A DNA stretch of 46,574 nucleotides from a virus: the IMG/VR virus record IMGVR_UViG_3300045988_007914; one strand, 5' to 3'. Of the stretch, positions 3,673 through 46,445 are shown one piece after another. Within the stretch, counting starts at the first letter, position 1. Each line of letters starts with the position of its first letter. The notes beneath the pieces were generated by a model. The model did not search any database, was not told where the DNA came from, and worked only from the letters and a program-made list of their open reading frames with translations. Made by a program: the position numbers and the translations under genes.

Positions 3673-5069
3673 TTGAAGTCTCAAACACACTGACGGTCGA
3701 GAACCCTACCCCGGAAATGGTGCTGTGGTGCAAGAGAAATCTTACCATACCAAACCCGGAATATGCGAAGAAATCTCGCATGAACCTATGGCTCGGCAAC
3801 ACGCCGAAAGTCCTGTCGCTCTATGAGACCCGAGGAACAACGCTGGTACTTCCGTTTGGAACACTCCGGCTACTACCGAAGGACATATCCGATAAGGCAC
3901 TGTTCTTGAGCGAATTTGCCGCCCCTGTGAAGGTGAATTATAACGCTGATGTTCCACTCTATGACTACCAAGAAACCGCCGTACAAGCGATGGTAGCCGC
4001 CCAGTATGGGATATTACAGAGTGCCGCCGGAAGCGGTAAAACGCAGATGGGTATTGCCCTCGCCGCAAGGCTGGGACGGCGTACATTATGGCTCTGCCAC
4101 ACACTCGACCTTATTAAACAGAGTAAGGAACGAGCCAAGCTCTATATGAGTGAAGACCTCATGGGTACTATCACGGAAGGAAAAGTCAATCTCGGTGAGG
4201 GAATCACCTTCGCCACGATTCAGACGATGTGCAAGCTCGACCTCGCACAGTACCGGGACTACTGGGATTGCATTATCACAGACGAGGTACACCGGGTCAG
4301 CGGCAGTCCTACCGCCGTGACACAGTATCAAAAAGTGCTGAACAGTTTATCGGCACGACACAAGTACGGTTTGTCAGCAACGGTACACAGGTCAGACGGA
4401 ATGATTCGAGCTACCTACGCCCTTGTTGGTGAGGTCGCTTACAAAGTCCCGGACGAAGCTGTGGCTGACAAGATTATGAAGGTAGGTATCTACCCTGTGG
4501 GTACAGGGGTGCAGATAAGCCGGGAAGCCCTTAACACGGACGGAACGTTGAACTACACCAAGCTCATTACCTATCTTACCGAAAACGCCGCCCGGAATCA
4601 GCTCATTGCCGATTCCATCGAGCAGAGACCTTCTCTGATTCTGTCGGACAGGCTGAATCACCTTGAAACATTGATAAGTCTTCTCCCGGTTGATATGCAG
4701 AAGGACGCTGTGATGATAAGCGGCAAAATGACAACTAAAAAGGGCAAGGCTGAACGAGAACAGGCTCTTGAGGACATGAGGAGTGGCAAGAAGAAATACC
4801 TCTTTGCTACATACTCACTGGCGAAGGAAGGGCTGGACGTACCACGGTTGGAGCGTCTGTACCTCACCACCCCACAGAAGGACTACGCTGTGGTGACACA
4901 GAGTATCGGGCGTATCGCTCGTACCTTCGATGGAAAGTCAGACCCTATCGCCTACGATTTCGTGGACGATATAGCTTACCTCGTGAAGTCCTATAAGAAG
5001 CGATGTACGACCTATCGAAAGAACGGTTGCTACTTCGTAAAGGAAGGAGGGACAAGCCCATGCGATTGA
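3654..5069 (+). CDS. SF2 DEAD/DEAH-box DNA helicase
   Basis: Walker A AAGSGKT, motif II DEVH, helicase C-terminal domain. Confidence 0.85.
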   Translation: MVEEMLIEVSNTLTVENPTPEMVLWCKRNLTIPNPEYAKKSRMNLWLGNTPKVLSLYETRGTTLVLPFGTLRLLPKDISDKALFLSEFAAPVKVNYNADVPLYDYQETAVQAMVAAQYGILQSAAGSGKTQMGIALAARLGRRTLWLCHTLDLIKQSKERAKLYMSEDLMGTITEGKVNLGEGITFATIQTMCKLDLAQYRDYWDCIITDEVHRVSGSPTAVTQYQKVLNSLSARHKYGLSATVHRSDGMIRATYALVGEVAYKVPDEAVADKIMKVGIYPVGTGVQISREALNTDGTLNYTKLITYLTENAARNQLIADSIEQRPSLILSDRLNHLETLISLLPVDMQKDAVMISGKMTTKKGKAEREQALEDMRSGKKKYLFATYSLAKEGLDVPRLERLYLTTPQKDYAVVTQSIGRIARTFDGKSDPIAYDFVDDIAYLVKSYKKRCTTYRKNGCYFVKEGGTSPCD

Positions 5070-7567
5070 TTTCTTATGACTGTGAGGTCTTCGCCTATGA
5101 CTGGCTCGTAACCCTCAAGGATAAGGAAACAGGCGTTTACACCTGTATTTGGAACGACAACGAAGCTCTGAAAATGGCATTGTCCGATGATTGTATTTAT
5201 GTCGGTTTCAACTCGAAACACTACGACCAGTACATCATCAAAGCGATTGCCGCCGGGTTTGCCCCGGAGGAAATTAAAAAGGTCAACGATTTCATTATTG
5301 CCGGAGGGCAAGGCTGGCAGTGTCCGCTACTTGATGGTATCTACTTCCGTTTCAGCAACGTGGATATTCGAGACGATACGCAACAGGGTCTATCCCTTAA
5401 AGCTATCGAAGGACACCTCGGTATGTCGGTTAAAGAATCCAGTGTACCGTTTGACATTGACCGTCCTCTAACCCCGGAGGAAAAAGCCGAGACGGAGTTC
5501 TACTGTAAACATGACGTTGATACCGCCGAGAGACTGATTGACATTCGTAAAGACTACTTGAAGAACAAAATCAACCTCGGTCGGCTGGCTGGTCTTGATG
5601 AAGTCAAGGCAATGGGTATGACGAACGCCAAACTGACTGCGGCAATGCTGAAAGCAACCAAGAAGCCACACGATGATGAACGCAAGTATGTCTACCCGGA
5701 CAATCTGCGAAAAGAGTACATACCACCCGAGGTTTTCGCTTTCTTCGATAGAATGTATGACCTCTCCATTTCGGACAGTGAGCTTTTCAAAGGCAAGTTC
5801 AATCTGAACATCGGTGAGTGTCCTGTGACACTCGGGTATGGCGGTATTCATGGTGCAATCCCAAACTTCTTTTGGGAGGAAACCGAGGATAGAGGAATTT
5901 GGAATGAGGACGTAGGAAGCTACTACCCACACCTCTGTACCATCAATGGGTACACAAGCAGAAACATTCCGTCTCCGCAGATTTACGAGGACATTCTTGA
6001 CCGCCGAATGAAAGCGAAAGCCGCTGGCGATAAGCACACGGCGAACGCTCTGAAACTGGTTTGCAACACCACCTACGGTTGCTTGCTGAATCAGTACAAC
6101 GACCTCTACGACCCTCTCATGGGTAGGTCGGTCTGCATTTCCGGGCAGTTATATCTACTGGAACTTGCAGAGCATTGTTACCAAGAGATTGAAGGACTGC
6201 GAATTGTCCAGCTCAACACGGACGGTATCATGGTCGAGTGCGATAAGAAGGACTACGACACACTGACCGCTATCTGTGCTGAATGGCAGTCTCGTACAGG
6301 CTTTGACCTCGAGGAAGATACCGTTGTCAAGATAGCGCAGAAAGACGTAAACAACTACGTTGAGGTTCAGCCGGGCGGCAAAGCAAAAGCCAAAGGCGGC
6401 TATCTCGTGAAGGGTATCGCTCCGGCTGGTGCTTTCAATATCAATAACTCCTGTGTGATTGTGGCTACCGCTCTCAAGGAATTCTTTGTAAACGGAACGC
6501 CTGTCGAAGACACCATAAATAGTTGCGATGATATTTTCCAGTTTCAGATTATCGCCAAAGCCGGGGCGAAGTACCGAGAAGCCTATCATGTGGTGGACGG
6601 TGAAAAGCAGTCCGTTCAGAAGGTGAACCGAGTGTACGCCACAGCGGACGAGAGATACGGAAAAATCTTCAAGGTGAAAGCCGAGGACGATTCCGAAGCG
6701 AAAATAGATTCTCTCCCGGAACACTGTATCATCGACAACGATAATGAGCTTTCCATTGACGAGGTAGACAGAAGTTTCTACATCACAATGGCGAAAAAGC
6801 GAGTTGACGATTTCAAGGGTATCAAACCCGAAAAAACTAAAAAGCCAAGGAGGACAAAGAAAATGGCAACTACTACCAAGACCGCAAATGTATATCAGAA
6901 GCTCCTTACTGCAAGGGCAAAGTTCCTTGAAGCGAACGTGGAGAAGACAGGAAAGAATATGCACCTGTCCTTCAAATACTTCGAGCTTGAGGACATTGTA
7001 CCGACCGCTATCCGCATTTTCAATGAGGTTGGTCTTATCCCTGTGGTGAACTTCACCGCTGATGTTGCAGCCATGAACATCATCAACACCGACAACCCGG
7101 AGGAATCCGTACCGTTCGTTGCTCCGTTTAATCAGATTGCTCCTATCGTGAGCAACGCTGGCAAACAGGCTACAAACGAAATGCAAGCTCTCGGTTCTTC
7201 CATCACCTATATGCGCCGTTACCTGTATATGATTGCGCTGGACATTTGCGAGAGCGATTCCATTGACGCAAATCTCGGCAAGGGTGAGACTGCTTCCGCT
7301 CCGGCGGCAGAGAGAAAAGCTCCGGCTACTCCCGAACAGAGACAAGAAGTGAAACAGGAACTCACTGCTCCGGCTGACAACGCTTCTACTTTACAGATTA
7401 AGGGTCTGAAAGCAGTTCTCAAGAAGCTCAAGGACGCTGACCCGAGCAAGGAGGAACTGATTGCGAATATCGCAGTACAGACCAAGGGATTCACGGAGAT
7501 TTCCAAGTCCGATTGCGAAACGCTGATTCAGAAGATTACCGCAATGCTGGAAGGAGGGGCTAAGTAA
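5060..7567 (+). CDS. Family-B DNA polymerase continuing in frame into an ERF-type single-strand annealing domain
   Basis: Track ORF 5003..7567 trimmed to the ATG at 5060 (GGAGGG RBS). Exo motifs YDCEVF, FNSKHYD, YCKHDVD. Polymerase motifs DVGSYYPH, KLVCNTTYG, LNTDGI. There is no stop before the ERF part. Confidence 0.75.
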   Translation: MRLISYDCEVFAYDWLVTLKDKETGVYTCIWNDNEALKMALSDDCIYVGFNSKHYDQYIIKAIAAGFAPEEIKKVNDFIIAGGQGWQCPLLDGIYFRFSNVDIRDDTQQGLSLKAIEGHLGMSVKESSVPFDIDRPLTPEEKAETEFYCKHDVDTAERLIDIRKDYLKNKINLGRLAGLDEVKAMGMTNAKLTAAMLKATKKPHDDERKYVYPDNLRKEYIPPEVFAFFDRMYDLSISDSELFKGKFNLNIGECPVTLGYGGIHGAIPNFFWEETEDRGIWNEDVGSYYPHLCTINGYTSRNIPSPQIYEDILDRRMKAKAAGDKHTANALKLVCNTTYGCLLNQYNDLYDPLMGRSVCISGQLYLLELAEHCYQEIEGLRIVQLNTDGIMVECDKKDYDTLTAICAEWQSRTGFDLEEDTVVKIAQKDVNNYVEVQPGGKAKAKGGYLVKGIAPAGAFNINNSCVIVATALKEFFVNGTPVEDTINSCDDIFQFQIIAKAGAKYREAYHVVDGEKQSVQKVNRVYATADERYGKIFKVKAEDDSEAKIDSLPEHCIIDNDNELSIDEVDRSFYITMAKKRVDDFKGIKPEKTKKPRRTKKMATTTKTANVYQKLLTARAKFLEANVEKTGKNMHLSFKYFELEDIVPTAIRIFNEVGLIPVVNFTADVAAMNIINTDNPEESVPFVAPFNQIAPIVSNAGKQATNEMQALGSSITYMRRYLYMIALDICESDSIDANLGKGETASAPAAERKAPATPEQRQEVKQELTAPADNASTLQIKGLKAVLKKLKDADPSKEELIANIAVQTKGFTEISKSDCETLIQKITAMLEGGAK
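6863..7567 (+). CDS. erf: ERF-family annealase, possibly translated separately from an internal start
   Basis: AAGGAGG at 6847-6853, 9 nt before the in-frame ATG at 6863. ..SFKYFELEDIVPTAIRIFNEVGL..GSSITYMRRYLYMIALDI.. resembles P22 Erf. Confidence 0.55.
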   Translation: MATTTKTANVYQKLLTARAKFLEANVEKTGKNMHLSFKYFELEDIVPTAIRIFNEVGLIPVVNFTADVAAMNIINTDNPEESVPFVAPFNQIAPIVSNAGKQATNEMQALGSSITYMRRYLYMIALDICESDSIDANLGKGETASAPAAERKAPATPEQRQEVKQELTAPADNASTLQIKGLKAVLKKLKDADPSKEELIANIAVQTKGFTEISKSDCETLIQKITAMLEGGAK

Positions 7568-12905: not shown

Positions 12906-13202
12906 ATGAGCCGAACTTTCTACTCCGAGTATGTGAATCATTGTCTGCGATTCTATGCTCGACATGACAGACCGAAGTTCCACTCGGAAGCAGACGAGCA
13001 TAACTGGGCGGCGTGTGACAGCGCACTCAAGTCGTTCTCCGATAATGACCGAGCAATGCTTCTGTATATCTATCGTGAGGGCGATACCGTCCCGGACAAT
13101 ATCTATCAGTTGGCGAAGTCCAAAGGTATCTCACAGGACAGCATTTGGAAGCTCGTAAATGAGCTGGAAAGAAAGGTGGCAAAGCGGCGTGGTTTACTAT
13201 GA
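12906..13202 (+). CDS. Small sigma-70-region-4-like HTH protein, candidate late-gene regulator
   Basis: ..RAMLLYIYREGDT..IYQLAKSKGISQDSIWKLVNELERKVA.. resembles a region-4 or ArpU/RinA-type HTH. Weak call. Confidence 0.4.
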   Translation: MSRTFYSEYVNHCLRFYARHDRPKFHSEADEHNWAACDSALKSFSDNDRAMLLYIYREGDTVPDNIYQLAKSKGISQDSIWKLVNELERKVAKRRGLL

Positions 13203-13983
13203 CAATATTCCCGAGGAATTAAAGAAACTCGACCAGTGGGTGTGTGCGAATGATGGAAGCAAAGTCCCCATGAAAGCATGGGAGAACGAAGCCGCTTCCT
13301 CCACCAACCCGGAAACATGGTCTGATTTCGAGACTGCTCTCGAATCGTACAACCAGCACTATTACGACTACTGTGGTTTCGTGTTTGCGGACAATGGGTA
13401 TGTCGGGATTGATATTGACGAGGGGTACGATGAAGACGGTCTTATGAGTGTCCTCGGGGCTGATATTGTCGGTAAGTGCCACAGCTATACGGAGAAATCC
13501 CGGAGTGGGCGTGGATTCCATATCCTACTCCGTGGAACTCTCCCCTTCAAGGGCAAGAACAATCTTGCTGGCGTGGAGATTTACAAGGCGGCTCGATACT
13601 TCATTATGACTGGGAACACCCTTCTCTACCGAGAAATCATCGAGAACCAAGAAGCGATTGATTATGTGGTGGAGAAATACTTCCCGGAAGCTCGAGAGAC
13701 CTCCGATAAGGTGGTTGTTGGGCGAGACAAGATATACGCCCCGGTATGGGAAGAACCTGTCGTAAATGGGCGTGTAAAGCTCCGTCCAGTATATCCAAGA
13801 ATCCCGGACGGAAGCCGCAATATCTGTCTCACCTCCCTCGCTGGTATGCTCCACAATCAAGGCTATTCCAAGTCACAGATTTACGAGGAGCTGTTGTACG
13901 CCAATACGGTTGCCTGTGACCCACCTCTTGATAGGAACGAACTGCGAACTATCTGCAACAGCGTCACGAGGTACAAGCGATGA
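13159..13983 (+). CDS. Bifunctional primase-polymerase (prim-pol) with a PriCT-like C-terminus
   Basis: ..GIDIDEG..SRSGRGFHIL..; start uncertain. Confidence 0.7.
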   Translation: MSWKERWQSGVVYYDNIPEELKKLDQWVCANDGSKVPMKAWENEAASSTNPETWSDFETALESYNQHYYDYCGFVFADNGYVGIDIDEGYDEDGLMSVLGADIVGKCHSYTEKSRSGRGFHILLRGTLPFKGKNNLAGVEIYKAARYFIMTGNTLLYREIIENQEAIDYVVEKYFPEARETSDKVVVGRDKIYAPVWEEPVVNGRVKLRPVYPRIPDGSRNICLTSLAGMLHNQGYSKSQIYEELLYANTVACDPPLDRNELRTICNSVTRYKR

Positions 13984-14180: not shown

Positions 14181-14193
14181 CTTGCACAGAAAA

Positions 14194-14245
14194 GATAAAA
14201 ATTTATCTTTTAGGTATTGACATTCAATCTTGTATGTGTTATCTT
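14194..14245 (+). promoter_or_regulatory. Operator GATAAAAATTTATC plus an extended -10 promoter (TTGACA-17-TGT-TATCTT)
   Basis: Palindrome at 14194-14207, a 9-nt gap, TTGACA at 14217-14222, TATCTT at 14240-14245. The whole unit is homologous to 20600-20714. Confidence 0.55.
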
Positions 14246-14298
14246 ATAATCACAGCAAGGCAAAAACTTATCCAATAAAGATTAAGGAGGATTTTATC

Positions 14299-14886
14299 AT
14301 GGAAGTTATGAGAAACATGACTATTGACACTGAACTGTTTGAACTGGGAGACATTATCTCCTTCACACTCATCACCGGGGAGAAGGTTAAAGCGAAAGCC
14401 ATTCGTGAGACCCCGAACGGTATGCTTTTCATTACCGTTGACTGTCTCAAGGACGAGCAGAAAATGTTCGAGAATCCCGGCAGAGCCGAAAAGGTTGACT
14501 ACGAACATTCCGACCTTCGCAAGAAGCTGAACGGAGAAATCTTCGAGAGCTTCCCGGAGGAAATCAAGGGTCGCATGGTTGGTATGCGAGTAGGTCAGAC
14601 GAACTGCTTTGATATGCTCCGTATTCCTACCGAGCGTGAAATCTTCGGAGAGAACCCTTACGGTAAGGACGAGCCTGTATCTGTGAGACGCTTCTACGGC
14701 ATGGAGAACCGCCGTGAGCGTATCGCTTTCCAAGGCTCGGAGACAGGTACATGGGAATGGTACTGGTTGCAGAACAAGGTTGAGGATTCCGCTTCCCTTT
14801 TCGCCAGTGTCGACGGCGACGGTCGTGCGGCCTGCGGCGACGCTTCCGATTCTTTTGGCGTTCGCCCGGTCTTTCTCTTATCCTAA
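14299..14886 (+). CDS. DGR target protein 2 (195 aa, C-type-lectin/DUF6273-like fold, no signal peptide or structural N-domain seen)
   Basis: Track ORF trimmed to the ATG at 14299, after AAGGAGG. C-terminus ..WEWYWLQNKVEDSASLFASVDGDGRAACGDASDSFGVRPVFLLS carries VR2. Confidence 0.85.
   Translation: MEVMRNMTIDTELFELGDIISFTLITGEKVKAKAIRETPNGMLFITVDCLKDEQKMFENPGRAEKVDYEHSDLRKKLNGEIFESFPEEIKGRMVGMRVGQTNCFDMLRIPTEREIFGENPYGKDEPVSVRRFYGMENRRERIAFQGSETGTWEWYWLQNKVEDSASLFASVDGDGRAACGDASDSFGVRPVFLLS
14785..14869 (+). repeat. DGR variable repeat VR2
   Basis: 85 nt align without gaps to TR 42232-42316. All 18 mismatches fall on TR adenines. Confidence 0.9.
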
Positions 14887-14889
14887 AAT

Positions 14890-14910
14890 CTCGCCCCCTT
14901 GTGGGGCGAG
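14890..14910 (+). promoter_or_regulatory. GC hairpin 20 nt after VR2 (CTCGCCCC-CTTGT-GGGGCGAG)
   Basis: 8-bp stem and 5-nt loop. A near-identical copy lies at 41651-41671. Confidence 0.7.
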
Positions 14911-15107: not shown

Positions 15108-15237
15108 CACTGTCGTAGACGAGAATAACACCGTGAAAATTGGCACACAGCCTGTTTTCTGCGTAACCGAGCAGTGTTCGTGGTGGTTGGAGGACAAACA
15201 GAAATGTGCAATCGCAGTTATGGGAGGTAAGAAATAA
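15070..15237 (+). CDS. Small protein (55 aa), TAATG-coupled to the MazF-like gene
   Basis: AGGAGG RBS. MEQNKICPLLTTNTVVDENNTVKIGTQPVFCVTEQCSWWLEDKQKCAIAVMGGKK. Confidence 0.4.
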   Translation: MEQNKICPLLTTNTVVDENNTVKIGTQPVFCVTEQCSWWLEDKQKCAIAVMGGKK

Positions 15238-15695
15238 TGGCATATTACATGAATAAGAGCGTCCCGGCGAAGCGAGGAGATATTTTCTACATTTCCAACT
15301 CCAAGTGCTACGCCACAGACCCGAGTAATACAGAGGGAAGACCAGCAATCGTTGTCTCCTCTGATAAATTGAATGAACACGCAGATGTTGTCGAGGTAGT
15401 CTTTCTCACCACCAAGGAAAAGCGTCTCATGCCTACTCACGCAGAGGTGCTGTGCAAGATTCCTTCAACTGCTCTGTGTGAGACCATCTATACGGTCAAT
15501 AAGGACAGGCTGGGCGATTTCGTCCGTACCTGTACCGATAAGGAAATGGAGGGTGTCAATGCTGGAATCCTCTGCTCACTCGGTATCGCCGCTCCTGTGG
15601 TCGATGGTGAGCCTGTTGACAACTCTGTAACGGTCGAGAGGAATCTTTACAAGCACCTCTACGAAGACCTTCTCAATAAGGTAATGGCGAGGTGA
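15237..15695 (+). CDS. PemK/MazF-fold toxin-like protein with a ~40-aa C-terminal extension
   Basis: ..AKRGDIFYI..EGRPAIVVSSD..VVEVVFLTTK.. matches the MazF/PemK N-terminal pattern. Confidence 0.6.
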   Translation: MAYYMNKSVPAKRGDIFYISNSKCYATDPSNTEGRPAIVVSSDKLNEHADVVEVVFLTTKEKRLMPTHAEVLCKIPSTALCETIYTVNKDRLGDFVRTCTDKEMEGVNAGILCSLGIAAPVVDGEPVDNSVTVERNLYKHLYEDLLNKVMAR

Positions 15696-19300: not shown

Positions 19301-19314
19301 GATAAGTATTTATC
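19301..19314. promoter_or_regulatory. Fourth copy of the GATAA-N4-TTATC palindrome (GATAAGTATTTATC), followed by a degenerate copy of the P14/P20 promoter
   Basis: 19335-19362 (TATCTGAAAAGGATTGAAAAACAATCTT) parallels 20618-20645, but no good -10 follows. Confidence 0.4.
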
Positions 19315-19392
19315 AAAAACGACATTTACCAAACTATCTGAAAAGGATTGAAAAACAATCTTTTTATAAGAACGAGTTGTTCTTATTATTAC

Positions 19393-19503
19393 AGTAGTTA
19401 AAGTAGCTGTTCTCAAGGTATTGCGTGTAACTTCCTCTATATAGAAAAATCCCTATATATAGAAGTTATACGCAAAAACCGATTTTCAACTACTTCTACT
19501 ACT
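19393..19503. repeat. Nested-palindromic repeat element, copy A (weaker dyad symmetry extends over 19381-19521)
   Basis: AGTAGTTAAAGTAG...CTACTTCTACTACT termini and inner arms GCGTGTAACTTCCTCTATATA / TATATAGAAGTTATACGC. Homologous to 23082-23190 and, inverted, to 46041-46149. Confidence 0.85.
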
Positions 19504-19533
19504 GCAATAAGAATAAGAAGAAAGGAGACTGAA

Positions 19534-20253
19534 ATGGATATAGATAAGCTGTTAGCAGACAGTTCCGGGGATTCCGAGGAGACTGTTGCGACTAAGGAGA
19601 CTGTTTCCAGCGAGGAGACTGCAATCAGTCCTCGTACCGGGAAACCGATTCAGAAGAAATATGCACCAAAGAAGAAAGGTAAGCCCCGAGGAGGTAATAA
19701 CTGGTTGAAGCCGGAAAACATCGCTCCGGGGCTTGAAGCTGGTGATAACACGAAGTTTCTCTCCGTCAATATGGCGTTGATGAATATGCCGGACATTGAC
19801 ATGGAGAATCCGTTGGAGGTGCAACAGCGACTTTCCGACTATTTTGCTTTGTATGCACAGTATGACATGAAACCTACGGTTGTGGGTATGGCTATTGCGC
19901 TGAATGGACACAACAGACAGTGGCTTTATGCGGTTACACATGACGTACCGGGAGGTGGTGCTGGATATAAGATTGCGTTGCCGCCGGAGGTAGCTGACGT
20001 AATAAAAAAGGCGTACTTTTTGCTCGAAAATTTGTGGGAAAACTATATGCAAAGTGGCAAGGTCAACCCGGTAGCTGGTATCTTCCTCGGCAAGAACAAC
20101 TATGGCTACCAAGACAAGACCGAGTACGTTCTCACACCGAACCAGCAGAACGACAACGACTATTCCGCTGATGAAATCAGAGAACGCTACATTGCAAGCG
20201 ACCAGCAGAAGCGACTTTCAGCAAGCAACTCTGACGAGGACACGAGCGACTAA
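19534..20253 (+). CDS. terS: Terminase small subunit
   Basis: ..KPTVVGMAIALN.. HTH-like part and ..AGIFLGKNNYGYQDK.. hallmark. First gene after the early region. Confidence 0.75.
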   Translation: MDIDKLLADSSGDSEETVATKETVSSEETAISPRTGKPIQKKYAPKKKGKPRGGNNWLKPENIAPGLEAGDNTKFLSVNMALMNMPDIDMENPLEVQQRLSDYFALYAQYDMKPTVVGMAIALNGHNRQWLYAVTHDVPGGGAGYKIALPPEVADVIKKAYFLLENLWENYMQSGKVNPVAGIFLGKNNYGYQDKTEYVLTPNQQNDNDYSADEIRERYIASDQQKRLSASNSDEDTSD

Positions 20254-20329: not shown

Positions 20330-20354
20330 GCTCCGGGATTTCCCGGGGCTTTTT
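20330..20354 (+). terminator. Rho-independent terminator
   Basis: GCTCCGGG-ATTT-CCCGGGGC followed by TTTTT. Confidence 0.65.
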
Positions 20355-20480: not shown

Positions 20481-20536
20481 TTCCATATAATGCGAATTTT
20501 GCGCCCGGTTCAATTCGTAAATTTAGAATTTAGGTA

Positions 20537-20565
20537 TTGACAATTCGTATAATAAGAATTAGAAT
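20537..20565 (+). promoter_or_regulatory. Copy of the immunity-region rightward promoter (TTGACA-17-TAGAAT)
   Basis: 20510-20571 aligns with 1901-1962 at about 85 percent identity. A 34-nt core differs at 1 base. Confidence 0.55.
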
Positions 20566-20607
20566 AACAATAACAACACAAACAAGATAAACCGCCAACA
20601 CGAAAAA

Positions 20608-20659
20608 GATAAATTTTTATCTGAAAAGTATTGACAAACAATCTTGAAAGTGTTATTGT
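20608..20659 (+). promoter_or_regulatory. Operator GATAAATTTTTATC plus an extended -10 promoter (TTGACA-17-TGT-TATTGT)
   Basis: Palindrome at 20608-20621, a 9-nt gap, TTGACA at 20631-20636, TATTGT at 20654-20659. Confidence 0.55.
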
Positions 20660-20714
20660 ATAGTCAAGGCAAGACAAGAAACAACACAAATAAGATTATA
20701 TGGAGGTTTTCAAA

Positions 20715-22788: not shown

Positions 22789-22840
22789 GATAATTTCTTA
22801 TCCTATCAGTGTTGACAATCTCCCTTTCTCGTGCTATACT
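22789..22840 (+). promoter_or_regulatory. Operator GATAATTTCTTATC plus an extended -10 promoter (TTGACA-17-TGC-TATACT)
   Basis: Palindrome at 22789-22802, a 9-nt gap, TTGACA at 22812-22817, TATACT at 22835-22840. Confidence 0.55.
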
Positions 22841-23082: not shown

Positions 23083-23190
23083 AGTAGTTAAAGTAGTTGA
23101 AAACAGCATTTTGCGTGTAACTTCCTCTTAGTACACGCATATATAGCAAAAGTTACCGCAATTTTTGATTTTCTACTACTTTTACTACTT
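23082..23190. repeat. Nested-palindromic repeat element, copy B
   Basis: AAGTAGTTAAAGTAGTTGAAAA...TTTTCTACTACTTTTACTACTT. It starts on the last base of the HTH stop codon and ends 17 nt before the recombinase GTG. Confidence 0.85.
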
Positions 23191-24544: not shown

Positions 24545-24557
24545 TTTGGAGGTATTT

Positions 24558-31926: not shown

Positions 31927-32375
31927 GTGATTCGCTGTTGACAGATGAATCCGCTAACAAGGGGAGCGAGCGTGAGAATCGCTCTGCTCCCCCTTCTTAT
32001 TCGGAGATTTTTCTCGCAAAGTTCCCCTATTACTTATCAATAGGCATGACGGAAGAACAATACTGGGATAGAGATTCCACTCTCGTGAAGTCCTACCGCA
32101 AAGCGGAGGAACTTCGCAAAGAGAGGGTCAATCAAGAAATGTGGTTACAGGGTATGTACATCTATGACGCTATTTCTCGTCTGTCTCCGATTCTTCGTGC
32201 TTTCGCCAAGAAGGGAACTAAAGCCCAACCTTATGTTGAAGAAGCATATCCCATCAATAAAAAGACGGTGGAGGAAGCAGAACTCAAGAAGGAAAAGGCT
32301 AAGTCTGAAAAGGGTCTGCGCTATATGCAAGCGTATATGGTACAGGCAAATAAGCAGTTACAAGAAAGGAAGTGA
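31920..32375 (+). CDS. -1 frame extension of the chaperone (T-like part of a G/GT pair)
   Basis: Track ORF in the -1 frame relative to 31597..31926, with no good RBS of its own. Confidence 0.6.
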   Translation: MVSDSLLTDESANKGSERENRSAPPSYSEIFLAKFPYYLSIGMTEEQYWDRDSTLVKSYRKAEELRKERVNQEMWLQGMYIYDAISRLSPILRAFAKKGTKAQPYVEEAYPINKKTVEEAELKKEKAKSEKGLRYMQAYMVQANKQLQERK

Positions 32376-35300
32376 GTTTTATGCCTACTACAATCGAACA
32401 ACTCGAATTGGAAGTTCAGTCGAGTTCCACCTCGGCTGTCGCTGGTATAGACGCTCTTTCCGCTTCTTTGTCCAAACTCAAAAATGCAGTTAGGGGCGGT
32501 GTCGGATTAACAAGCGTTGCAAATCAAGTACGCAATCTCGATACCGCCCTTAAAAGCATGGATAGTTCCGGGGCAGACAAGATTGACAAGCTCGCTTCCA
32601 GTTTGGAAAAGCTGAAAGGTCTCGGCAGTCTCAAGATTTCGTCTTCCATCGGAAATCAGCTTCAAAATATCGGTAGTGCCGCCGCTTCTCTCACTGGTGT
32701 AGATTTCAGTGCTATGGAGAAGCTGGGTACAGCACTCCAACCGCTGAACAATTTGAACGCTTCCGGGCTAAAGTCCACAATCAATGCGCTCAATAAGTTA
32801 CCGAAACTGGCAGACACCCTTGACAACATGGACATGACTAAGTTCACCAGTCAGATTCAGCAGTTGTCTACGGCTCTTGCTCCGCTGACAAATCAGCTCA
32901 ATGCTGTAACTACGGCGTTCAATCGTCTTCCTACGAACATTCAGAGGGCTATTACCGTCACGAACAGAATCTCGCAAGAGAACAATAAGGCGGCAAATAG
33001 TTACATGAATCTGTATGCCAAAATCAAAATGGCTATGGGTGTTGTGCGTACTGGTGCGAGAGTAATTGCTTCGTGGATAACACAGTCCAACCAGTACATT
33101 GAGGATTTGAACCTGTTTACCGCTTCTATGGGTAAATACGCAGAGGAAGCACAGAACTACGCAGAAGCAGTCAGCGAAGCTCTCGGTATCGACCCGGGCG
33201 AGTTCATGCGAAATCAAGGTGTGTTCAATACCATCATTAGCGGTTTCGGCGTGGCGAGCGATAAAGCGTACCTTATGTCCAAGAACCTCACACAGCTCGG
33301 CTACGACATTTCTTCGTTCTTCAACATTTCGTTTGAGGACGCAATGCAGAAGTTACAGTCCGGCATTGCTGGTGAGCTTGAACCGCTTCGTAGACTGGGT
33401 TACGACCTGTCTGTTGCAAGACTGCAAGAGGAAGCTCTTGCTCTCGGTATCGAGAAAAAGGTCTCTGCTATGACACAGGCTGAAAAGTCGCAGTTGCGTT
33501 ACTACGCAATTATGACACAGGTAACTACCGCTCAAGGTGATATGGCTCGTACTCTGAACGCTCCGGCTAACCAGCTTCGTGTTTTACAGGCACAGGTTAC
33601 GCAGTGTGCAAGAGCTTTGGGTAATATCTTTATCCCGGCTCTGAACGCAGTATTACCGTATGCAATCGCTTTGGCGAAGATTGTCCGTATGCTGGCAAAC
33701 TCTATCGCAAGTCTGTTCGGATTCAAACTCCCGGAGGTAGATTATTCCGGCATTTCTGCTGGTGCTTCTGCGGTTGGCGATTTGGCTGACAACGCCGGGG
33801 ACGCTTCCGATGGACTGGGTAAAGCCGGGAAAGCGGCTAAGAAGCTGAAAAATGCTCTGCTCGGTATTGACGAGCTGAACGTCCTATCTAAAGACGATAG
33901 TTCCAGCGGAAGCGGTAGTGGCTCGGGTGCTGGTATCGGTGGTGGGGATTTAGGCATTGACCTTCCTACCTACGATTTCCTCGGTGACGCAATCACTTCC
34001 AAGGTTGACGAAATCGTTCAGATGATTAAGGACGCTATGTGGGAAATCACTGCTGTTATCAGCGGATTCTTACTGGCAATCGGTACTATCCTTGTTGTCA
34101 CAGGTGCAAACGTTCCTCTCGGTCTCGGTCTCATGGCTGTTGGTGCTGTCGGTTTGGCGGCTTCGGTAATGGCGAACTGGAACGGAATGTCGGAACGGTT
34201 GGCGAAGGTTCTCACCCTCGTTACCGGGGTACTGGGCGGCTTCCTGTTAGCTATCGGTGCTTTCCTTGTATTTTCGGGTGTCAATGTACCGCTCGGTGCT
34301 GGTCTCATGGTGGCTGGTGCGGCGGCTCTCGGTACTGCGGCTGTAATTAACTGGAAGTTCCTCAACGGAGACCTGTCGAACGCTCTGTCCATTCTCACGG
34401 CAATCGTGAGCGGTGCGTTGCTGGCTATGGGTGCATTGTTCGCCTTTACTGGTGTTGATGTTCCTCTCGGTATCGCATTGATGGCGGCTGGTGCTGTCGG
34501 CATGGTTACAGCAATCGGTCTTAACTGGGATTCGATGTCCGACCCTCTCCGTAGGACAATCGGTATGCTCGAAACCATTGTTGGAGGTGCATTGCTGACA
34601 TTCGGTGCAATTCTCGCTCTGACTGGCGTAAACGTTCCTCTCGGTGTTGCGATGATTGCCGCTGGTGCGGTTTCTGTCGCTTCGGCAGTAGCTTTGAACT
34701 GGAACTCCTTAACAGGTGATGTTCAAGAATCCGTACTAAGCATTGTGGCTATCGTGAGCGGTGCTTTAATCGGTGTCGGTGCAATCCTCGCTCTGACAGG
34801 AGTTGCAACCGGGCTGGGTATTGCGATGATTGCCGCTGGTGCTGTCGGTCTTGCCGCAACGGTTGGTTTGAATTGGAATAGTATGCCGGACAGTATCAGA
34901 AAGGTTACTACGAAGATTCTTCTCATTGCTGGGGCGGCTTCCATTGCCATAGGTATGATTCTTGCTTTCACAGGAGTTGCAACTCCTCTCGGCGTAGGTC
35001 TTATCCTTGCTGGTGCGGCGGCTCTCGGTACGGCTGTGGCTCTTAACTGGGACACTTTGACAAACAAGCTAAAGGGCGTAACTACTAAAATACTTGCTAT
35101 CGCTGGGGCGGCGGCTCTTGCAATCGGTATTATCCTGTGCTTCACCGGGGTTGGTATTCCTCTCGGTGTTGGATTGATATTATCGGGTGCGGCGGCTCTC
35201 GGTACAGCAGTAGCTATTAACTGGGAAACCATCAAAGAAAAAATCAAGGGAGTTTTCACCAAGATTAAATCAATGGCTGGTTCTCTCGGCAAACTCGCTA

Positions 35301-37066
35301 TCGGTCTCATGTTGTGTCTGACAGGTGTTGGTATTCCTCTCGGTCTTGCTCTCATTGCCGATGGAGTTAAAGACTTCGCTACTGGAAAACCTGTTAGCTG
35401 GGATTCGATGGTGAGCGGAATTAAGGAAGCTCTCGGAAATATATCTGACGAGTGGAACAAATTCAAAAAGAAGGTTAAGAACAGCAAGCCTGTTCAATTC
35501 CTTGCCGAAGTAAAGAACAATGCTTCGGAATGGTGGGACAACGTAAAGGATTGGTGGTCTGACAAAACGAAAGACGGTCTCTCTCTTGAAACTGGCGTAA
35601 AGCTCGTGAAAGATGGCTGGTCTTCTGTGAAGAACTGGATTGGTAACATTCCGGCTGTGAAACAGGGTGTTGGGCTTCTGAAATCCGGCTGGTCTACCGT
35701 GAAAAACTGGATAGGCAACATTCCAACCGTAGACCAAGCTGTCGCACTCGCAAAGAACGGCTGGCAGACGGTCAAGGGCTGGATTGGCAATATCCCGGGA
35801 GTATCGCAAGCAGTAAGTCTTGCGAAATCCGGCTGGAACTCTGTAAGAGAGTGGGTTGGTAATATCCCGGTTGTCAGTCAAGGAATCTCGTTGCTGAAAT
35901 CCGGCTGGACAACGGTTAAAAACTGGGTCGGCAATATCCCTACTCTGTCCCAAGCAATCAATCTCATTAAGAGCGGTTGGCAGACAGTAAAGGGCTGGAT
36001 TGGTAACATTCCTACTCTGTCCCAAGCAATCAGCCTTATCAAGAGTGGTTGGACTACGGTTAAGAATTGGATTGGAAATATCCCGGTTCTTTCTCAAGGT
36101 ATCAGCTTACTCAAGTCGGGTTGGACTACGGTTAAAAACTGGATTGGTAACATTCCTACGCTTTCGCAAGGAATCTCGTTGCTGAAATCCGGCTGGTCTA
36201 CCGTAAAGAACTGGATTGGTAGTCTTCCTGTTATCGCTCAAGGTATTTCGCTTTTCAAGTCCGGGTGGACAACGATTCAGAACTGGATTGGTAGCCACAC
36301 CGTAGGTGTCGGTATCTCTCTATGGAAAAACGGTTGGCGTTCTATCTCGAGCTTCGTTGGTACTTCGGTATCTGTCGGTATCTCGCTTTTCAAATCCGGC
36401 TGGACTTCTATTAAGAAGTTCTTCGGACTGGCGAACGGCGGTATCGTTGGTGCAAACGGCGGCGTGAAGATGTTCGCTTCCGGCGGTATCATCACTCCGA
36501 ATATGTGGAAAGCAATGCCGAAATATGCTGGCGGCACGAACCGAGCGCATGGCTCTATGTTCGTTGCTGGTGAGAGCGGTGCAGAGTTGGTAGGTCATGT
36601 AAATGGCACTACCGAGGTGCTGAACCGATTCCAGCTTGCTTCTGTCATGCACAGCTCCATCGTAAGCGGTATGGCACAGTTCTCCGGGTACTGGCAGTCC
36701 ATGTCTCGAGACATTGTGACTTGTGCGAACGGTATTATCAATGCCGTTGTCGTAAGTACCGCCGGAATCAACGAAAACCTCGTGCTTGCTTCGGCAAGCG
36801 GTTATGACCCTTATAACTCGCTGGCACAGACGGTGTACGAAGATTCCAAGAAATCCTATGACGGTGCATATTCCGATGATTCGTGGTCTCGCAATATGCG
36901 TGAGTTCTACCACGAGTATGTCGAACCTACTCTCAAGGAAATCGCTACCGATACCAAGAGACAGGCAGACAAGAAGGAACAGACCATCGTAAAGGTCGGC
37001 AACCGTACAATCAATGACGCTGTTACCACGCAGAAGGAAGCGAACGGTTTCAGCTTCACCGAGTAA
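32372..37066 (+). CDS. Tape measure protein (1564 aa; start GTG 32372 or ATG 32381)
   Basis: Size, position and internal repeats. Confidence 0.9.
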   Translation: MSFMPTTIEQLELEVQSSSTSAVAGIDALSASLSKLKNAVRGGVGLTSVANQVRNLDTALKSMDSSGADKIDKLASSLEKLKGLGSLKISSSIGNQLQNIGSAAASLTGVDFSAMEKLGTALQPLNNLNASGLKSTINALNKLPKLADTLDNMDMTKFTSQIQQLSTALAPLTNQLNAVTTAFNRLPTNIQRAITVTNRISQENNKAANSYMNLYAKIKMAMGVVRTGARVIASWITQSNQYIEDLNLFTASMGKYAEEAQNYAEAVSEALGIDPGEFMRNQGVFNTIISGFGVASDKAYLMSKNLTQLGYDISSFFNISFEDAMQKLQSGIAGELEPLRRLGYDLSVARLQEEALALGIEKKVSAMTQAEKSQLRYYAIMTQVTTAQGDMARTLNAPANQLRVLQAQVTQCARALGNIFIPALNAVLPYAIALAKIVRMLANSIASLFGFKLPEVDYSGISAGASAVGDLADNAGDASDGLGKAGKAAKKLKNALLGIDELNVLSKDDSSSGSGSGSGAGIGGGDLGIDLPTYDFLGDAITSKVDEIVQMIKDAMWEITAVISGFLLAIGTILVVTGANVPLGLGLMAVGAVGLAASVMANWNGMSERLAKVLTLVTGVLGGFLLAIGAFLVFSGVNVPLGAGLMVAGAAALGTAAVINWKFLNGDLSNALSILTAIVSGALLAMGALFAFTGVDVPLGIALMAAGAVGMVTAIGLNWDSMSDPLRRTIGMLETIVGGALLTFGAILALTGVNVPLGVAMIAAGAVSVASAVALNWNSLTGDVQESVLSIVAIVSGALIGVGAILALTGVATGLGIAMIAAGAVGLAATVGLNWNSMPDSIRKVTTKILLIAGAASIAIGMILAFTGVATPLGVGLILAGAAALGTAVALNWDTLTNKLKGVTTKILAIAGAAALAIGIILCFTGVGIPLGVGLILSGAAALGTAVAINWETIKEKIKGVFTKIKSMAGSLGKLAIGLMLCLTGVGIPLGLALIADGVKDFATGKPVSWDSMVSGIKEALGNISDEWNKFKKKVKNSKPVQFLAEVKNNASEWWDNVKDWWSDKTKDGLSLETGVKLVKDGWSSVKNWIGNIPAVKQGVGLLKSGWSTVKNWIGNIPTVDQAVALAKNGWQTVKGWIGNIPGVSQAVSLAKSGWNSVREWVGNIPVVSQGISLLKSGWTTVKNWVGNIPTLSQAINLIKSGWQTVKGWIGNIPTLSQAISLIKSGWTTVKNWIGNIPVLSQGISLLKSGWTTVKNWIGNIPTLSQGISLLKSGWSTVKNWIGSLPVIAQGISLFKSGWTTIQNWIGSHTVGVGISLWKNGWRSISSFVGTSVSVGISLFKSGWTSIKKFFGLANGGIVGANGGVKMFASGGIITPNMWKAMPKYAGGTNRAHGSMFVAGESGAELVGHVNGTTEVLNRFQLASVMHSSIVSGMAQFSGYWQSMSRDIVTCANGIINAVVVSTAGINENLVLASASGYDPYNSLAQTVYEDSKKSYDGAYSDDSWSRNMREFYHEYVEPTLKEIATDTKRQADKKEQTIVKVGNRTINDAVTTQKEANGFSFTE
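34040..35412 (+). repeat. In-frame ~58-aa (174-nt) repeats, 7 full plus 1 partial; each looks like a two-helix hydrophobic hairpin ending in ..NW..
   Basis: The unit VTTKILAIAGAAALAIGIILCFTGVGIPLGVGLILSGAAALGTAVAINWETIKEKIKG recurs with variation. Confidence 0.8.
35573..36428 (+). repeat. In-frame 24-aa (72-nt) repeats, 12 copies
   Basis: GISLLKSGWTTVKNWIGNIPTLSQ consensus. 12 K(S/N/D)GW cores counted. Confidence 0.85.
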
Positions 37067-40744: not shown

Positions 40745-41647
40745 ATGAGTGCAATCAGTATTGAAACCAAGAAAGTGACGGAACTCACGGCGTTCACCAC
40801 ACCGACCGATTCGTGTCTGATTCCGATTCACGATGGCACAGGCTTGAAGAAAATCACCTTTGCCAATTTCAGAGCCAAGGCGGTTGAGGGTACGGAAGCG
40901 AAAATCGCTCCTCTGCTCTTTAGCAACGCCGGGGCGCACAATGCAATTTACCGTGGTAAGTCGCTGGGTAACACCGTGACTACCGCCCAGTATGCCGCTA
41001 TCAAGGCTGGTACATTCGATGATTTATACATCGGTGACTACTGGACTATCGGCGGTGTCAACTACCGTATTGCGGCGTTCGATTACTACCTCAACAGTGG
41101 TGATACGAACTGTACTACTCACCATGTAGTTATCGTGCCGGACACTTGCCTGTACAACGCACAAATGCACAACACCAGCTCCGGCAGTTGGGAAAGCGGT
41201 GCGGCAAATACTACGGCTGGCGGCTATGTCGGCTCGGATATGTACAAGAGCAATCTCGAACAGGCTAAGACCACTATCAAGAGTGCGTTCAGCGGTCATG
41301 TTCTGAAACACAGAATCTATCTTACGAACGCTGTTGCGAATGGTCGTGCTTCCGGCGGCGCATGGTGCGATTCCGAAGTTGACCTTATGTGCGAGCAGAT
41401 GGTCTACGGCAGTGGTATTTTCTCCCCTGTTTCTGACGGTAGCAATGTCCCGGCTAACTACCGTGTCGAGAAATCCCAGTTGCCGCTGTTCCAGCATGAG
41501 CCGAGCCGTATTTGCAATCGTGCGACATGGTGGTTAAGAGACGTTATTACCGCTTCCTTTTTCGCCTTTGTCGACTACTACGGTGATGCGGGCTACAACT
41601 TCGCTTCCTTTTCTATTGGCGTTCGCCCGGCTTTCTGTATATCTTAA
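40745..41647 (+). CDS. DGR target protein 1: receptor-binding tail fibre with a C-type-lectin-fold C-terminus
   Basis: C-terminus ..WWLRDVITASFFAFVDYYGDAGYNFASFSIGVRPAFCIS carries VR1. Confidence 0.9.
   Translation: MSAISIETKKVTELTAFTTPTDSCLIPIHDGTGLKKITFANFRAKAVEGTEAKIAPLLFSNAGAHNAIYRGKSLGNTVTTAQYAAIKAGTFDDLYIGDYWTIGGVNYRIAAFDYYLNSGDTNCTTHHVVIVPDTCLYNAQMHNTSSGSWESGAANTTAGGYVGSDMYKSNLEQAKTTIKSAFSGHVLKHRIYLTNAVANGRASGGAWCDSEVDLMCEQMVYGSGIFSPVSDGSNVPANYRVEKSQLPLFQHEPSRICNRATWWLRDVITASFFAFVDYYGDAGYNFASFSIGVRPAFCIS
41550..41635 (+). repeat. DGR variable repeat VR1
   Basis: 41550-41630 aligns without gaps to TR 42236-42316. All 15 mismatches fall on TR adenines. Confidence 0.9.
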
Positions 41648-41650
41648 ATC

Positions 41651-41671
41651 TGCGCCCCCTTGTGGGGCGCA
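41651..41671 (+). promoter_or_regulatory. GC hairpin 20 nt after VR1 (TGCGCCCC-CTTGT-GGGGCGCA)
   Basis: Same loop, spacing and flanking AATCT as the hairpin at 14890-14910. Confidence 0.7.
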
Positions 41672-42233: not shown

Positions 42234-42321
42234 TTCCGCTTCCAATTTCGCCAATGTCAACAACAACGGTAATGCGAACTACAACAACGCTTCCAATTCT
42301 AATGGCGTTCGCCCGGATTTC
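42232..42321 (+). repeat. DGR template repeat (TR)
   Basis: 23 adenines in the 81-nt core, arranged as 11 AAY codons plus TAC in the target frame. GC-rich 3' end GGCGTTCGCCCGG is shared with both VRs. Confidence 0.9.
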
Positions 42322-42386
42322 GATTCTGTGATTGAGTAGCCTATCGAGCGTTTCACAGACAGAGAAAGGAGAGATTATCCTTCCGT

Positions 42387-46040: not shown

Positions 46041-46149
46041 AAGTAGTAAAAGTAGTTGAAAATCGGTTTTTGCGTAAACTTTTGCTATATATGCGTGTAT
46101 ATAGAGGAAGTTATACGAAAAAAGCCAAGAACAGCTACTTTAACTACTT
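46041..46149. repeat. Nested-palindromic repeat element, copy C (inverted relative to A and B)
   Basis: Its reverse complement shares AGTAGTTAAAGTAGCTGTTCT and ACGCAAAAACCGATTTTCAACTACTT with copy A, and CACGCATATATAGCAAAAGTT with copy B. Confidence 0.85.
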
Positions 46150-46178: not shown

Positions 46179-46445
46179 ATGATTAACTGGAAAGTGCGTA
46201 TCAAAAACAAGAGCTTTTGGATTGCTCTGATTCCAGCGGTGCTTCTGCTGGTACAGGTGATTGCCGCTGTCTTCGGTTACACCCTCGATTTGGGTGAGCT
46301 GGGGGACAGGCTGTTGGCTGTTGTCAATGCTCTGTTCGCAGTCCTCACGATTCTCGGTATCGTGACTGACCCGACCACTGCTGGCATTGGAGATTCCAAA
46401 CAGGCTCTTACTTACGAGACACCTAAAAAAGAGGACGCAGTTTAA
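46179..46445 (+). CDS. Holin (two TM helices)
   Basis: MINWKVRIKNKSFWIALIPAVLLLVQVIAAVF..LLAVVNALFAVLTILGIV... AAGGAGG RBS. Confidence 0.75.
   Translation: MINWKVRIKNKSFWIALIPAVLLLVQVIAAVFGYTLDLGELGDRLLAVVNALFAVLTILGIVTDPTTAGIGDSKQALTYETPKKEDAV

Follow-up and report, generated by a model that had tools for sequence, protein, structure and literature searches.

The stretch of DNA analysed here (the window: IMG/VR record IMGVR_UViG_3300045988_007914, 46,574 nucleotides) is a complete circular temperate phage genome. Its terminal 55 bases are identical at start and end, meaning that the assembly is circular and the genome 46,519 bp long. It carries three copies, named A, B and C, of a palindromic element of about 110 bp. 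We propose, from sequence comparisons and with moderate confidence, that this element is an origin-type site, namely the cognate binding and loading site of the P4/SaPI-type helicase encoded by the same phage (SaPI, Staphylococcus aureus pathogenicity island), copy A being probably the primary site and copies B and C auxiliary or secondary ones. It is the co-variation between the repeats of the element and the helicase protein that leads to this reading, and we consider it the strongest evidence for a link between the two. An initial annotation had offered four options for the element: recombination sites for a serine recombinase, binding arrays for a late-gene regulator, hairpins for RNA processing or translational control, and a miniature inverted-repeat transposable element (MITE). 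None of the four proved to be the best supported explanation, and an origin or helicase-loading site was absent from that list.

The element and its association with the helicase

The three copies were all found again at coordinates agreeing within 1 nt with those first given (Table 1). The earlier description holds for the AGTAG pentamer pairs, for the inner arms and for the TATA-rich centre, and the four identities quoted as mosaic between copies were all correct on re-reading. The best alignment is obtained with A, B and the reverse complement of C (113 nt at 81%, with inverted matches of ~50 nt at 84-86%). Each element consists of two inverted ~50-bp arms which follow one common consensus, AAGTAGTnA-AAGTAGT-(12-bp AT-rich spacer)-TTTTTGCGTATAACTT-(pyrimidine-rich)-TATATA, and meet at a centre of variable length. 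The repeat at the ends, or iteron, has the consensus AAGTAGTnn and is present twice per end with a 9-bp period, the two end sets being oppositely oriented. The interior (79-83 bp) has a GC content of 33%, compared to 47.6% for the whole genome, and ranks among the least stable 0.02-2.3% of genome windows, promoter regions being equally unstable. In copy A, the left arm reads AGTAGTTAAAGTAG, CTGTTCTCAAGG (a 'T-type' spacer) and TATTGCGTGTAACTTCCTC, the right arm reads GAAGTTATACGCAAAAA, CCGATTTTCAA (an 'A-type' spacer) and CTACTTCTACTACT, and the TATA-rich centre lies between them.

A search of the window for AGTAGTNAAAGTAG with up to 2 mismatches gave 6 matches, which are exactly the six arms, against a chance expectation of 0.86; none of 100 shuffled sequences reached 6. 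No fourth copy was detected in the window by a search with the family profile. All copies fold far better than shuffles on either strand (z -5.4 to -9.1, DNA parameters). These statistics, together with the large family described below, bear out the earlier view that the element is not a chance duplication, that it is conserved and that it is related to a protein.

An exact search of IMG/VR for both termini returned at least 120 contig stretches, on which the family counts given here rest. A profile search of these loci identified at least 148 sites of 105-120 bp, corresponding to 82-95 distinct sequences. When the same pattern was searched in one genome per species (185,579 species genomes), 23 stretches were found, about 20 of them in Clostridia prophages, including those of the cultured Dorea ammoniilytica Sanger_02, at about 136-166 kb of NZ_JAOQJV010000002.1, and Criibacterium bergeronii CCRI-22567. 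Pattern matches in Bathyarchaeota and Nitrospinia metagenome-assembled genomes (MAGs) were discarded as unrelated (a coding repeat, and an iteron-rich plasmid-like region). The BLASTN check of copy number and context that had been proposed produced no match in cultured phages or plasmids for the region or for copy C, with either megablast or blastn; the family was found in IMG/VR and in prophages. Rfam searches of the element at gathering and permissive thresholds gave nothing real, only spurious miRNA-precursor matches at E values up to 10, and a tRNA scan of the element region gave nothing real either. Literature searches returned no description of this family, widespread though it is among phages of gut Clostridia; the kind of system, an iteron/AT-rich origin with a self-loading superfamily 3 (SF3) helicase, is known.

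Genomes of the family carry one to three copies. As had been observed for the window, where the copies end 30 nt before the terS ATG (19534), 18 nt before the recombinase GTG (23208) and 30 nt before the holin ATG (46179), most sites stand shortly before a gene: 136 of the 148 listed are located 13-113 nt 5' of a Shine-Dalgarno (SD) sequence and start codon, in a single direction. The gene that follows is terS-like at 63 sites, encodes the 251-aa recombinase at 27 and a holin at 23, the remainder being assorted accessory genes. Conversely, a copy precedes 31 of the 32 terS homologues and all 23 holin homologues in the family loci listed. Copy B is dispensable and variable: it is missing in lineages lacking the helix-turn-helix (HTH)/recombinase module, present as two tandem copies in relative L175, and replaced in L167 by unrelated DNA of ~50 nt, with conserved flanks and no duplication. 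Spacers are either A-type or T-type, and a T/T pairing within one element never occurs. Spacer classes are (T,A) or (A,A) only at terS sites, and (A,T) or (A,A) only at holin sites. Relative to the gene that follows, copies at terS and those at holin have opposite polarities, and at B the polarity varies, in a set comprising few independent genomes. We also noted a well-conserved AAGTAG-type element in an Oscillospiraceae MAG prophage (L138, 6406-6512), just 3' of a tape-measure gene only 35-47% identical to that of the window and beside minus-strand accessory genes, which means that the element occurs at another position too in a distant phage.

The helicase of the window belongs to the P4 family, as it scores 218 bits against TIGR01613 (phage/plasmid primase, P4 family, C-terminal; cutoff 108.7). 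With a profile of its last 150 residues, the top PDB match was SaPI5 PriRep5 (7OLA, residues 630-751, a weak match at E 0.017), a region that includes the domain shown to be required for ori binding. The AlphaFold2 model of the C-terminal part is a winged helix (mean predicted local distance difference test score, pLDDT, 76.7, and above 85 over the last 80 residues), whose best structural matches in Foldseek are the DNA-binding domain of RFX and Orc1/Cdc6 in complex with origin DNA. The same two relatives have served to identify the origin-binding domain in proteins of the P4 alpha type (PMC2777425).

Element and helicase strictly co-occur. Every helicase locus with 4.5 kb or more of sequence after the gene (54 of 54) has an element 534-5416 nt further on, always directly before terS. 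A sister clade (59% identity for TerL, ~40% for TerS) has neither the helicase nor the element within 10 kb upstream of TerL. Clostridium phage Maintenon, a relative in culture whose replication module is of the DnaB type, has no element. The replication region contains no other iteron cluster.

The iterons also vary with the helicase. Co-variation was scored on ~165 loci, taken as the best 80 per query from the ~250 or more helicase homologues in IMG/VR. In contigs with a divergent helicase, AAGTGA(G) replaces AAGTAG(T) as the iteron, and the inner arms are conserved. All of the ~155 loci with the wing motif K-S-[T/I]-S-[S/C/N]-G have AAGTAG iterons, and 8 of 8 loci with [K/R]-[A/R]-[I/Q/V]-[K/R]-D-G or AEGT have AAGTGA iterons in both arms. 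Two further loci have other wings: L294 has an odd wing (QSMSKG) and odd iterons, and L307 has the wing KGVTNG and an AGTAG core in a different setting (AGTAGAG), which our script classed as TAG. The association of wing motif and iteron type is complete across the ~165 loci, with few independent switches, since the AAGTGA lineages share ancestry. In the model, the varying residues lie in the first strand and the tip of the beta-hairpin wing. TerS does not follow the iterons, an AAGTGA phage having 59% identity and an AAGTAG phage 55%. In all AAGTGA lineages, 7-30 nt separate the helicase stop codon from the start of the element, and terS directly follows the element; L311 and L319 have a further copy, 4.2 kb off and of matching iteron type.

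Contig L307 offers two side observations. Its AGTAG-type element lies 3.6 kb 3' of the helicase gene, away from the terS-like gene, and a second kind of palindrome is present between the HTH and terS-like genes (893-984). The inner arms of the latter, TATAACTTCTCTTAGTA and TACTAAGAGAAATTATA, are homologous to those of the element, and its outer repeats are two direct copies of GTTGTAC-N4-GTGCAAC.

A helicase-loading site could work as follows. The element would be a two-fold symmetric array of protein sites on duplex DNA, in which the iterons flank an easily melted, AT-rich interior. The iterons would be read by the C-terminal winged helix of the phage's own helicase, partnered with the primase. 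If it behaves like the self-loading initiator helicases of SaPIs, the protein would form one hexamer per iteron pair, melt the centre and start replication. The role of primary origin would fall to copy A, placed 3' of the helicase gene; copies B and C, which have the same iterons, may be auxiliary or secondary loading sites, comparable to the P4 ori and crr pair.

Known origins bound by related proteins share several of these traits. Those of SaPIs have penta- or hexanucleotide iterons immediately 3' of rep, with an AT-rich middle and at least two iterons per side in opposite directions, which are bound by the winged helix of Rep (PMC9371898). The element resembles SaPI Rep/PriRep origins in its oppositely oriented sets of two or more short iterons on either side of an AT-rich region, in the SF3-like helicase with a C-terminal winged helix that is its predicted reader, accompanied by a primase, and, in several lineages, in its location just 3' of the helicase gene and just upstream of packaging genes. 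It differs from them by its three dispersed copies per genome instead of one, by having only two iterons per side, and by the 0.5-5.4 kb of accessory genes that separate it from the helicase gene in most lineages. Phage P4 needs two separate iteron-containing cis sites, ori and crr, several kb apart, which parallels A plus B/C. Besides the TIGR01613 membership of the helicase, the order primase, SF3 helicase, C-terminal winged helix is that of P4 alpha (PMC2777425). Unlike in the present phage, the P4 iterons are octamers, the P4 sites are not two-fold symmetric 107-bp units, and primase and helicase of P4 are parts of a single protein, not products of two genes with a cassette between them. 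What sets the family apart from described origins is that its copies are several and dispersed, that the arms are extended and that the positions before terS and holin are fixed.

Several points weigh against a helicase-loading site. The window helicase is only distantly related to PriRep5, as the E value above indicates, and the link between helicase and element is drawn from sequence comparison. Nothing equivalent to the second conserved block of the arms, TTTTTGCGTATAACTT, appears in the SaPI origins described. Between the helicase gene and copy A there are 0.5-5.4 kb in the window and most relatives, yet this copy invariably stands directly before terS, as does copy C before the holin gene, and copies B and C are far from the helicase gene; it is not obvious why an origin should need such placement, or three copies. 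The cumulative GC skew shows no origin signal, only a monotonic rise, which is due to all genes sharing one direction. Finally, the association between wing and iterons may rest on very few independent switches, and an iteron change in both arms would preserve a hairpin as well.

An extension of the same proposal, which we consider unlikely, is that the three copies are not redundant origins, and that helicase-loading sites at the entries to terS, to the accessory/structural block and to the holin form a replication-coupled late switch derived from origin modules. Initiator binding or fork passage would then gate late expression, packaging or the timing of lysis, and the opposite polarity of the terS and holin copies would bracket the 26.7-kb late region.

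Duplex DNA site versus RNA hairpin

We asked whether the arms are conserved for their base pairing or for their sequence. The transcribed strand shows no excess of G·U pairs (210, compared to 243 on the opposite strand), and RNA folds of the sense and antisense strands are equally stable (-36.2 and -35.7 kcal/mol). Comparison of left arms with reverse-complemented right arms, within and between elements, gave similarities judged no higher within an element (first value) than between elements (second value), namely 0.918/0.925, 0.484/0.578, 0.815/0.789 and 0.616/0.566, the second pair of values being that of the spacers, which are less complementary to their own partner than to random partners. 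Chimeric arm pairs fold with energies equal to or better than those of native pairs, and variants of the second conserved block (Block 2) are usually left uncompensated in the partner arm. No covariation was detected by RNAalifold among 47 non-redundant copies, for which only the outer stem was predicted. Since the arms fit one consensus, with neither compensation nor G·U bias, the data point to the sequence being read, on duplex DNA, rather than to a hairpin being selected. Long perfect palindromy seems to be avoided, each arm being conserved as a sequence.

An mRNA hairpin is nevertheless an alternative to be weighed, and we give it a small probability. A ~50-bp stem just before the ribosome-binding site could be cut by RNase III, stabilise the 5' or 3' side of the transcript, or act as a translational gate. 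The position of most sites before an SD sequence and start codon, in one direction, fits this well, as does the very stable fold (~-36 kcal/mol as RNA; z -5 to -9 with DNA parameters), and the effect of a hairpin would be independent of the orientation of the element. The GATAA-operator promoter-like sequence upstream of A (see below) would make this copy part of a 5' untranslated region, and all three elements are probably transcribed as parts of mRNAs. A conserved polypurine leader is present 3' of the terS copies; it recalls phage SP82, where an RNase III site is reportedly followed by a polypurine stabiliser. The RNase III hairpins of T7 and SP82 likewise come in several copies, in transcribed gaps just before ribosome-binding sites. 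Unlike these, the element has no sense-strand G·U bias or compensatory changes, its spacer is systematically unpaired, and its repeats track the DNA-binding wing of a protein; its primary sequence is kept across deep divergence, no Rfam family matches it, and copy B is dispensable. Because the copies lie in transcribed intergenic gaps, an RNA hairpin will also form, and the evidence suggests that it is a by-product and not the selected function. The RNA option of the initial annotation is disfavoured, for want of G·U excess, compensatory covariation and complementary spacers.

Regulatory, packaging, recombination and mobility alternatives

An operator or insulator array gating the late units (terS; recombinase-terL-structural genes; holin), for instance by blocking read-through from promoters expressed in the prophage or by looping the late region, appears quite unlikely. 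The arms do read as duplex-DNA sequence, the copies head three units, their placement directly before terS and holin is conserved, a strong terminator follows terS (20330-20349), and a sigma-70 promoter at 22812 reads towards B from the 4-kb moron island located after terS, which has its own sigma-70 promoters and terminators. As first described, however, the copies contain neither a sigma-70-like -35/-10 pair nor a GC hairpin with T-run, within or just after them, and their polarity relative to the downstream gene is not constant. Candidate small regulators are not universal: the HTH gene is missing from loci where copy A is kept, g18606 and g19055 are found in fewer than 60%, and domain scans assigned g18364, g18606 and g19055 to no informative family. 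The helicase is the only universally co-occurring DNA-binding protein that tracks the iterons. There is also a separate operator/promoter system. Four exact GATAA-N4-TTATC palindromes lie beside sigma-70-type promoter-like sequences, the one ~80 nt 5' of copy A being followed by a weak one (Table 1), which indicates a system distinct from the elements; the four sites look like a co-regulated promoter set. The late-gene binding array came closest among the four options first listed; what it lacks is a universally co-occurring regulator, and the GATAA system is a separate one. Shared ~100-bp promoter modules are present at two of the GATAA sites (14185-14284 and 20599-20698), and a second promoter pair was noticed at 1903-1961 and 20512-20570.

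A pac-type packaging site recognised by the small terminase, with B and C as pseudo-pac sites, is very unlikely. Copy A is always directly upstream of terS, and the arms contain phased A/T tracts. In P1 pac, clusters of hexamers flank a central region, a layout that the repeats of the element resemble; hexamers repeated on either side of a region of cleavage or bending would be reminiscent of P1 pac or of lambda cosB. A packaging site fits poorly with three sites per genome, one of them before the holin gene, and with TerS, whose identity is independent of iteron type and whose N-terminal half is the least conserved. Moreover, the sister clade with homologous TerS and TerL has no element, and the AGTAG element of L307 is away from the terS-like gene.

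The serine recombinase beside copy B led to the proposal of res/hix/att-like sites for inversion, deletion or cyclisation, which we hold to be highly improbable. Most lineages have one of three non-orthologous types of serine recombinase next to the B-position copy, the copies are mosaic, and their size is similar to that of res sites. Like Tn3/gamma-delta res, Hin/Gin hix/gix and the Mpi invertible promoters, the element is a ~110-bp unit with inverted repeats and an adjacent recombinase gene. Unlike them, it shows no rearrangement between copies. The 148 listed sites are collinear, as are ten independent metagenomic contexts of an identical holin protein, so that junctions for the inversion (A or B with C) or deletion (A with B) once suggested were not found in either set. 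The three recombinase types are the 251-aa protein, with a catalytic and a partial Recombinase domain, and two resolvase/invertase types of ~190 aa, and the element consensus is the same whichever of them is present. Lineages without recombinase keep copy A, terS and holin sites alike bear related 118-nt elements, and the whole-element polarity class of terS sites is never that of holin sites. The breakpoints of high-identity blocks between relatives fall at the ends of the helicase gene and at other gene borders, not at elements. The 251-aa recombinase, which has kept its catalytic serine, is a neighbour of copy B and probably does not read the element.

Manual reading showed that near-identical genomes can have the central ~16-20 bp of B in either orientation, whichever C variant they carry. 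Template switching in quasi-palindromes is a known mutational mechanism, to which we attribute this flip. Automatic screens for inversion of an internal segment between copies with identical flanks found none. An invertible promoter was also considered and rejected, as the whole segment is never found in both orientations at one locus and only the centre of B flips. The idea that elements act as linkers for module exchange was abandoned too, because the mosaic breakpoints of relatives do not fall on them. Three deletion derivatives were encountered among the relatives, without replication and/or structural genes and with junctions that are not at elements. L002 (IMGVR_UViG_3300007802_000118), whose junctions have no obvious microhomology, retains the three elements along with terS and the genes for the recombinase and the holin; in L121 (a Roseburia MAG), int and the lysis genes remain together with copy C; L136 (an Oscillospiraceae MAG) still has copy B, the HTH and recombinase genes and the lysis genes. 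All three may be defective prophages or satellite-like derivatives, or else artefacts of assembly.

Finally, a MITE-like selfish element made of two transposon ends and devoid of phage function is the least probable of all: the inverted arms with one consensus and no selection for pairing recall terminal inverted repeats, the variable B position, the tandem copies and the copy after a tape-measure gene in a distant prophage could suggest mobility, and bacterial MITEs (Correia, RUP, ERIC) are similarly intergenic imperfect palindromes of ~100-130 bp with conserved inverted ends, but the flanks bear no target-site duplication (the 'empty' site of L167 being a replacement and not a clean excision), no transposase was found in the part of the window open reading frames (ORFs) that was scanned, there are only 1-3 copies per genome, restricted among the 185,579 species genomes to prophages of this lineage, the terS and holin positions are stable, and the iterons track a helicase domain.

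Genome context and meaning

The features discussed are collected in Table 1. The early/replication block, oriented rightward, comprises a helicase, a PolA-like polymerase, RecE/Erf-like genes, the P4-type primase and the D5-like helicase. Downstream of the 251-aa recombinase gene comes TerL (at 24546), and structural genes, a diversity-generating retroelement (DGR) and the endolysin fill the region between TerL and the holin. GP3_package was called for terS of relatives, the match of the window terS being only weak. A repressor-like gene and a large serine integrase are also present.

Table 1. Copies of the element and associated features (window coordinates unless a relative is named).
Feature	Position	Strand	Remarks
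Element copy A, 111 bp	19393-19503		directly upstream of terS
Copy A iteron pair AGTAGTTAA-AGTAGCT	19393-19408	+	mirror pair 19490-19503
Element copy B, 107 bp	23083-23189		between small HTH gene and 251-aa serine recombinase gene; same polarity as A
Copy B iteron pairs	23083-23098 / 23176-23189
Element copy C, 107 bp	46042-46148		between endolysin and holin genes; inverted relative to A and B
Copy C iteron pairs	46042-46057 / 46135-46148
Operator GATAAGTATTTATC, GATAA-N4-TTATC	19301-19314	+	weak promoter-like sequence follows; ~80 nt 5' of copy A
Other exact GATAA-N4-TTATC palindromes	14194-14207, 20608-20621, 22789-22802		sigma-70-type promoter-like sequence just 3'
Primase	13159-13983	+	PriCT_1, N-terminal part of phage primase families; same replication module as D5-like helicase
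P4-family/D5-like SF3 helicase, C-terminal winged helix, 496 aa	16108-17598	+	Pfam D5_N, DUF5906, Pox_D5; TIGR01613
Small-terminase-like gene (terS)	19534-20253	+	directly 3' of copy A; weak GP3_package match
Serine recombinase, 251 aa	23208-23963	+	catalytic domain and partial Recombinase domain; directly 3' of copy B
Holin gene	46179-46445	+	solid holin call; directly 3' of copy C
Serine recombinase loci of relatives	L016 2943-3359, L024 2296-2724, L096 3220-3627 and others		same locus beside small HTH gene and B

Some observations were made in passing. The integrase (515 aa, minus strand, from ~1464 across position 1 to ~46450) was absent from the ORF list because its gene spans the arbitrary start of the window. 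Only the last ~28 int codons stay beside the holin gene in prophages, which places attP inside the 3' end of int, and the identical holin protein adjoins many different host genes there (smpB, transporters, a ParA/ParB element). Primase and helicase are split by a 2.1-kb cassette which comprises an operator/promoter of its own (14194-14245), an ORF targeted by the DGR and a MazF-like gene (15237-15695). The DGR consists of a reverse transcriptase (42387-43598), a template repeat (42236-42355) and two variable repeats (41550-41669 and 14789-14908), from which the template differs mostly at its adenines. One target is the 3' end of a tail-fibre-like ORF (40745-41647) and the other, remote, is the 3' end of an ORF of the early region (14299-14886); GC-rich hairpins are found 3' of both variable repeats. 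An 854-aa ORF (5003-7567) is a putative fusion of a PolA-like DNA polymerase (residues ~20-613) and an Erf-like single-strand annealing domain (~607-850), and the tape-measure ORF (32372-37066) has in-frame repeat arrays at 34096-36426 (8 x 174 bp and at least 8 x 72 bp).

Outside the family, three unrelated viral contigs (L314 868-974, L317 1086-1184 and L321 453-565) have three GTGAG facing three CTCAC around AT-rich centres, and in a Nitrospinia MAG contig (L135, 3915-4110) AAGTAGTAA repeats are arrayed in both orientations close to a ParA gene. Judging from these cases, sites made of inverted short iterons with AT-rich centres may be common and under-annotated.

Hardly any phages of gut Clostridia have been brought into culture, and the cis-acting signals in their DNA are unknown. 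The element and the helicase represent a concrete, testable candidate for an origin/initiator pair. They also provide an apparent recognition code, in which a change of four residues in the wing of a winged helix goes with a change of the iteron from TAG to TGA. Since the element is present in prophages of cultured strains (Dorea, Criibacterium), experiments are possible. Replicons or origin modules of switchable specificity might be derived from it as genetic tools for gut Clostridia, and the element can serve as a marker for annotating replication modules in viromes. The conserved copies before terS and the holin gene may, in addition, point to a link between replication and late functions in these phages.

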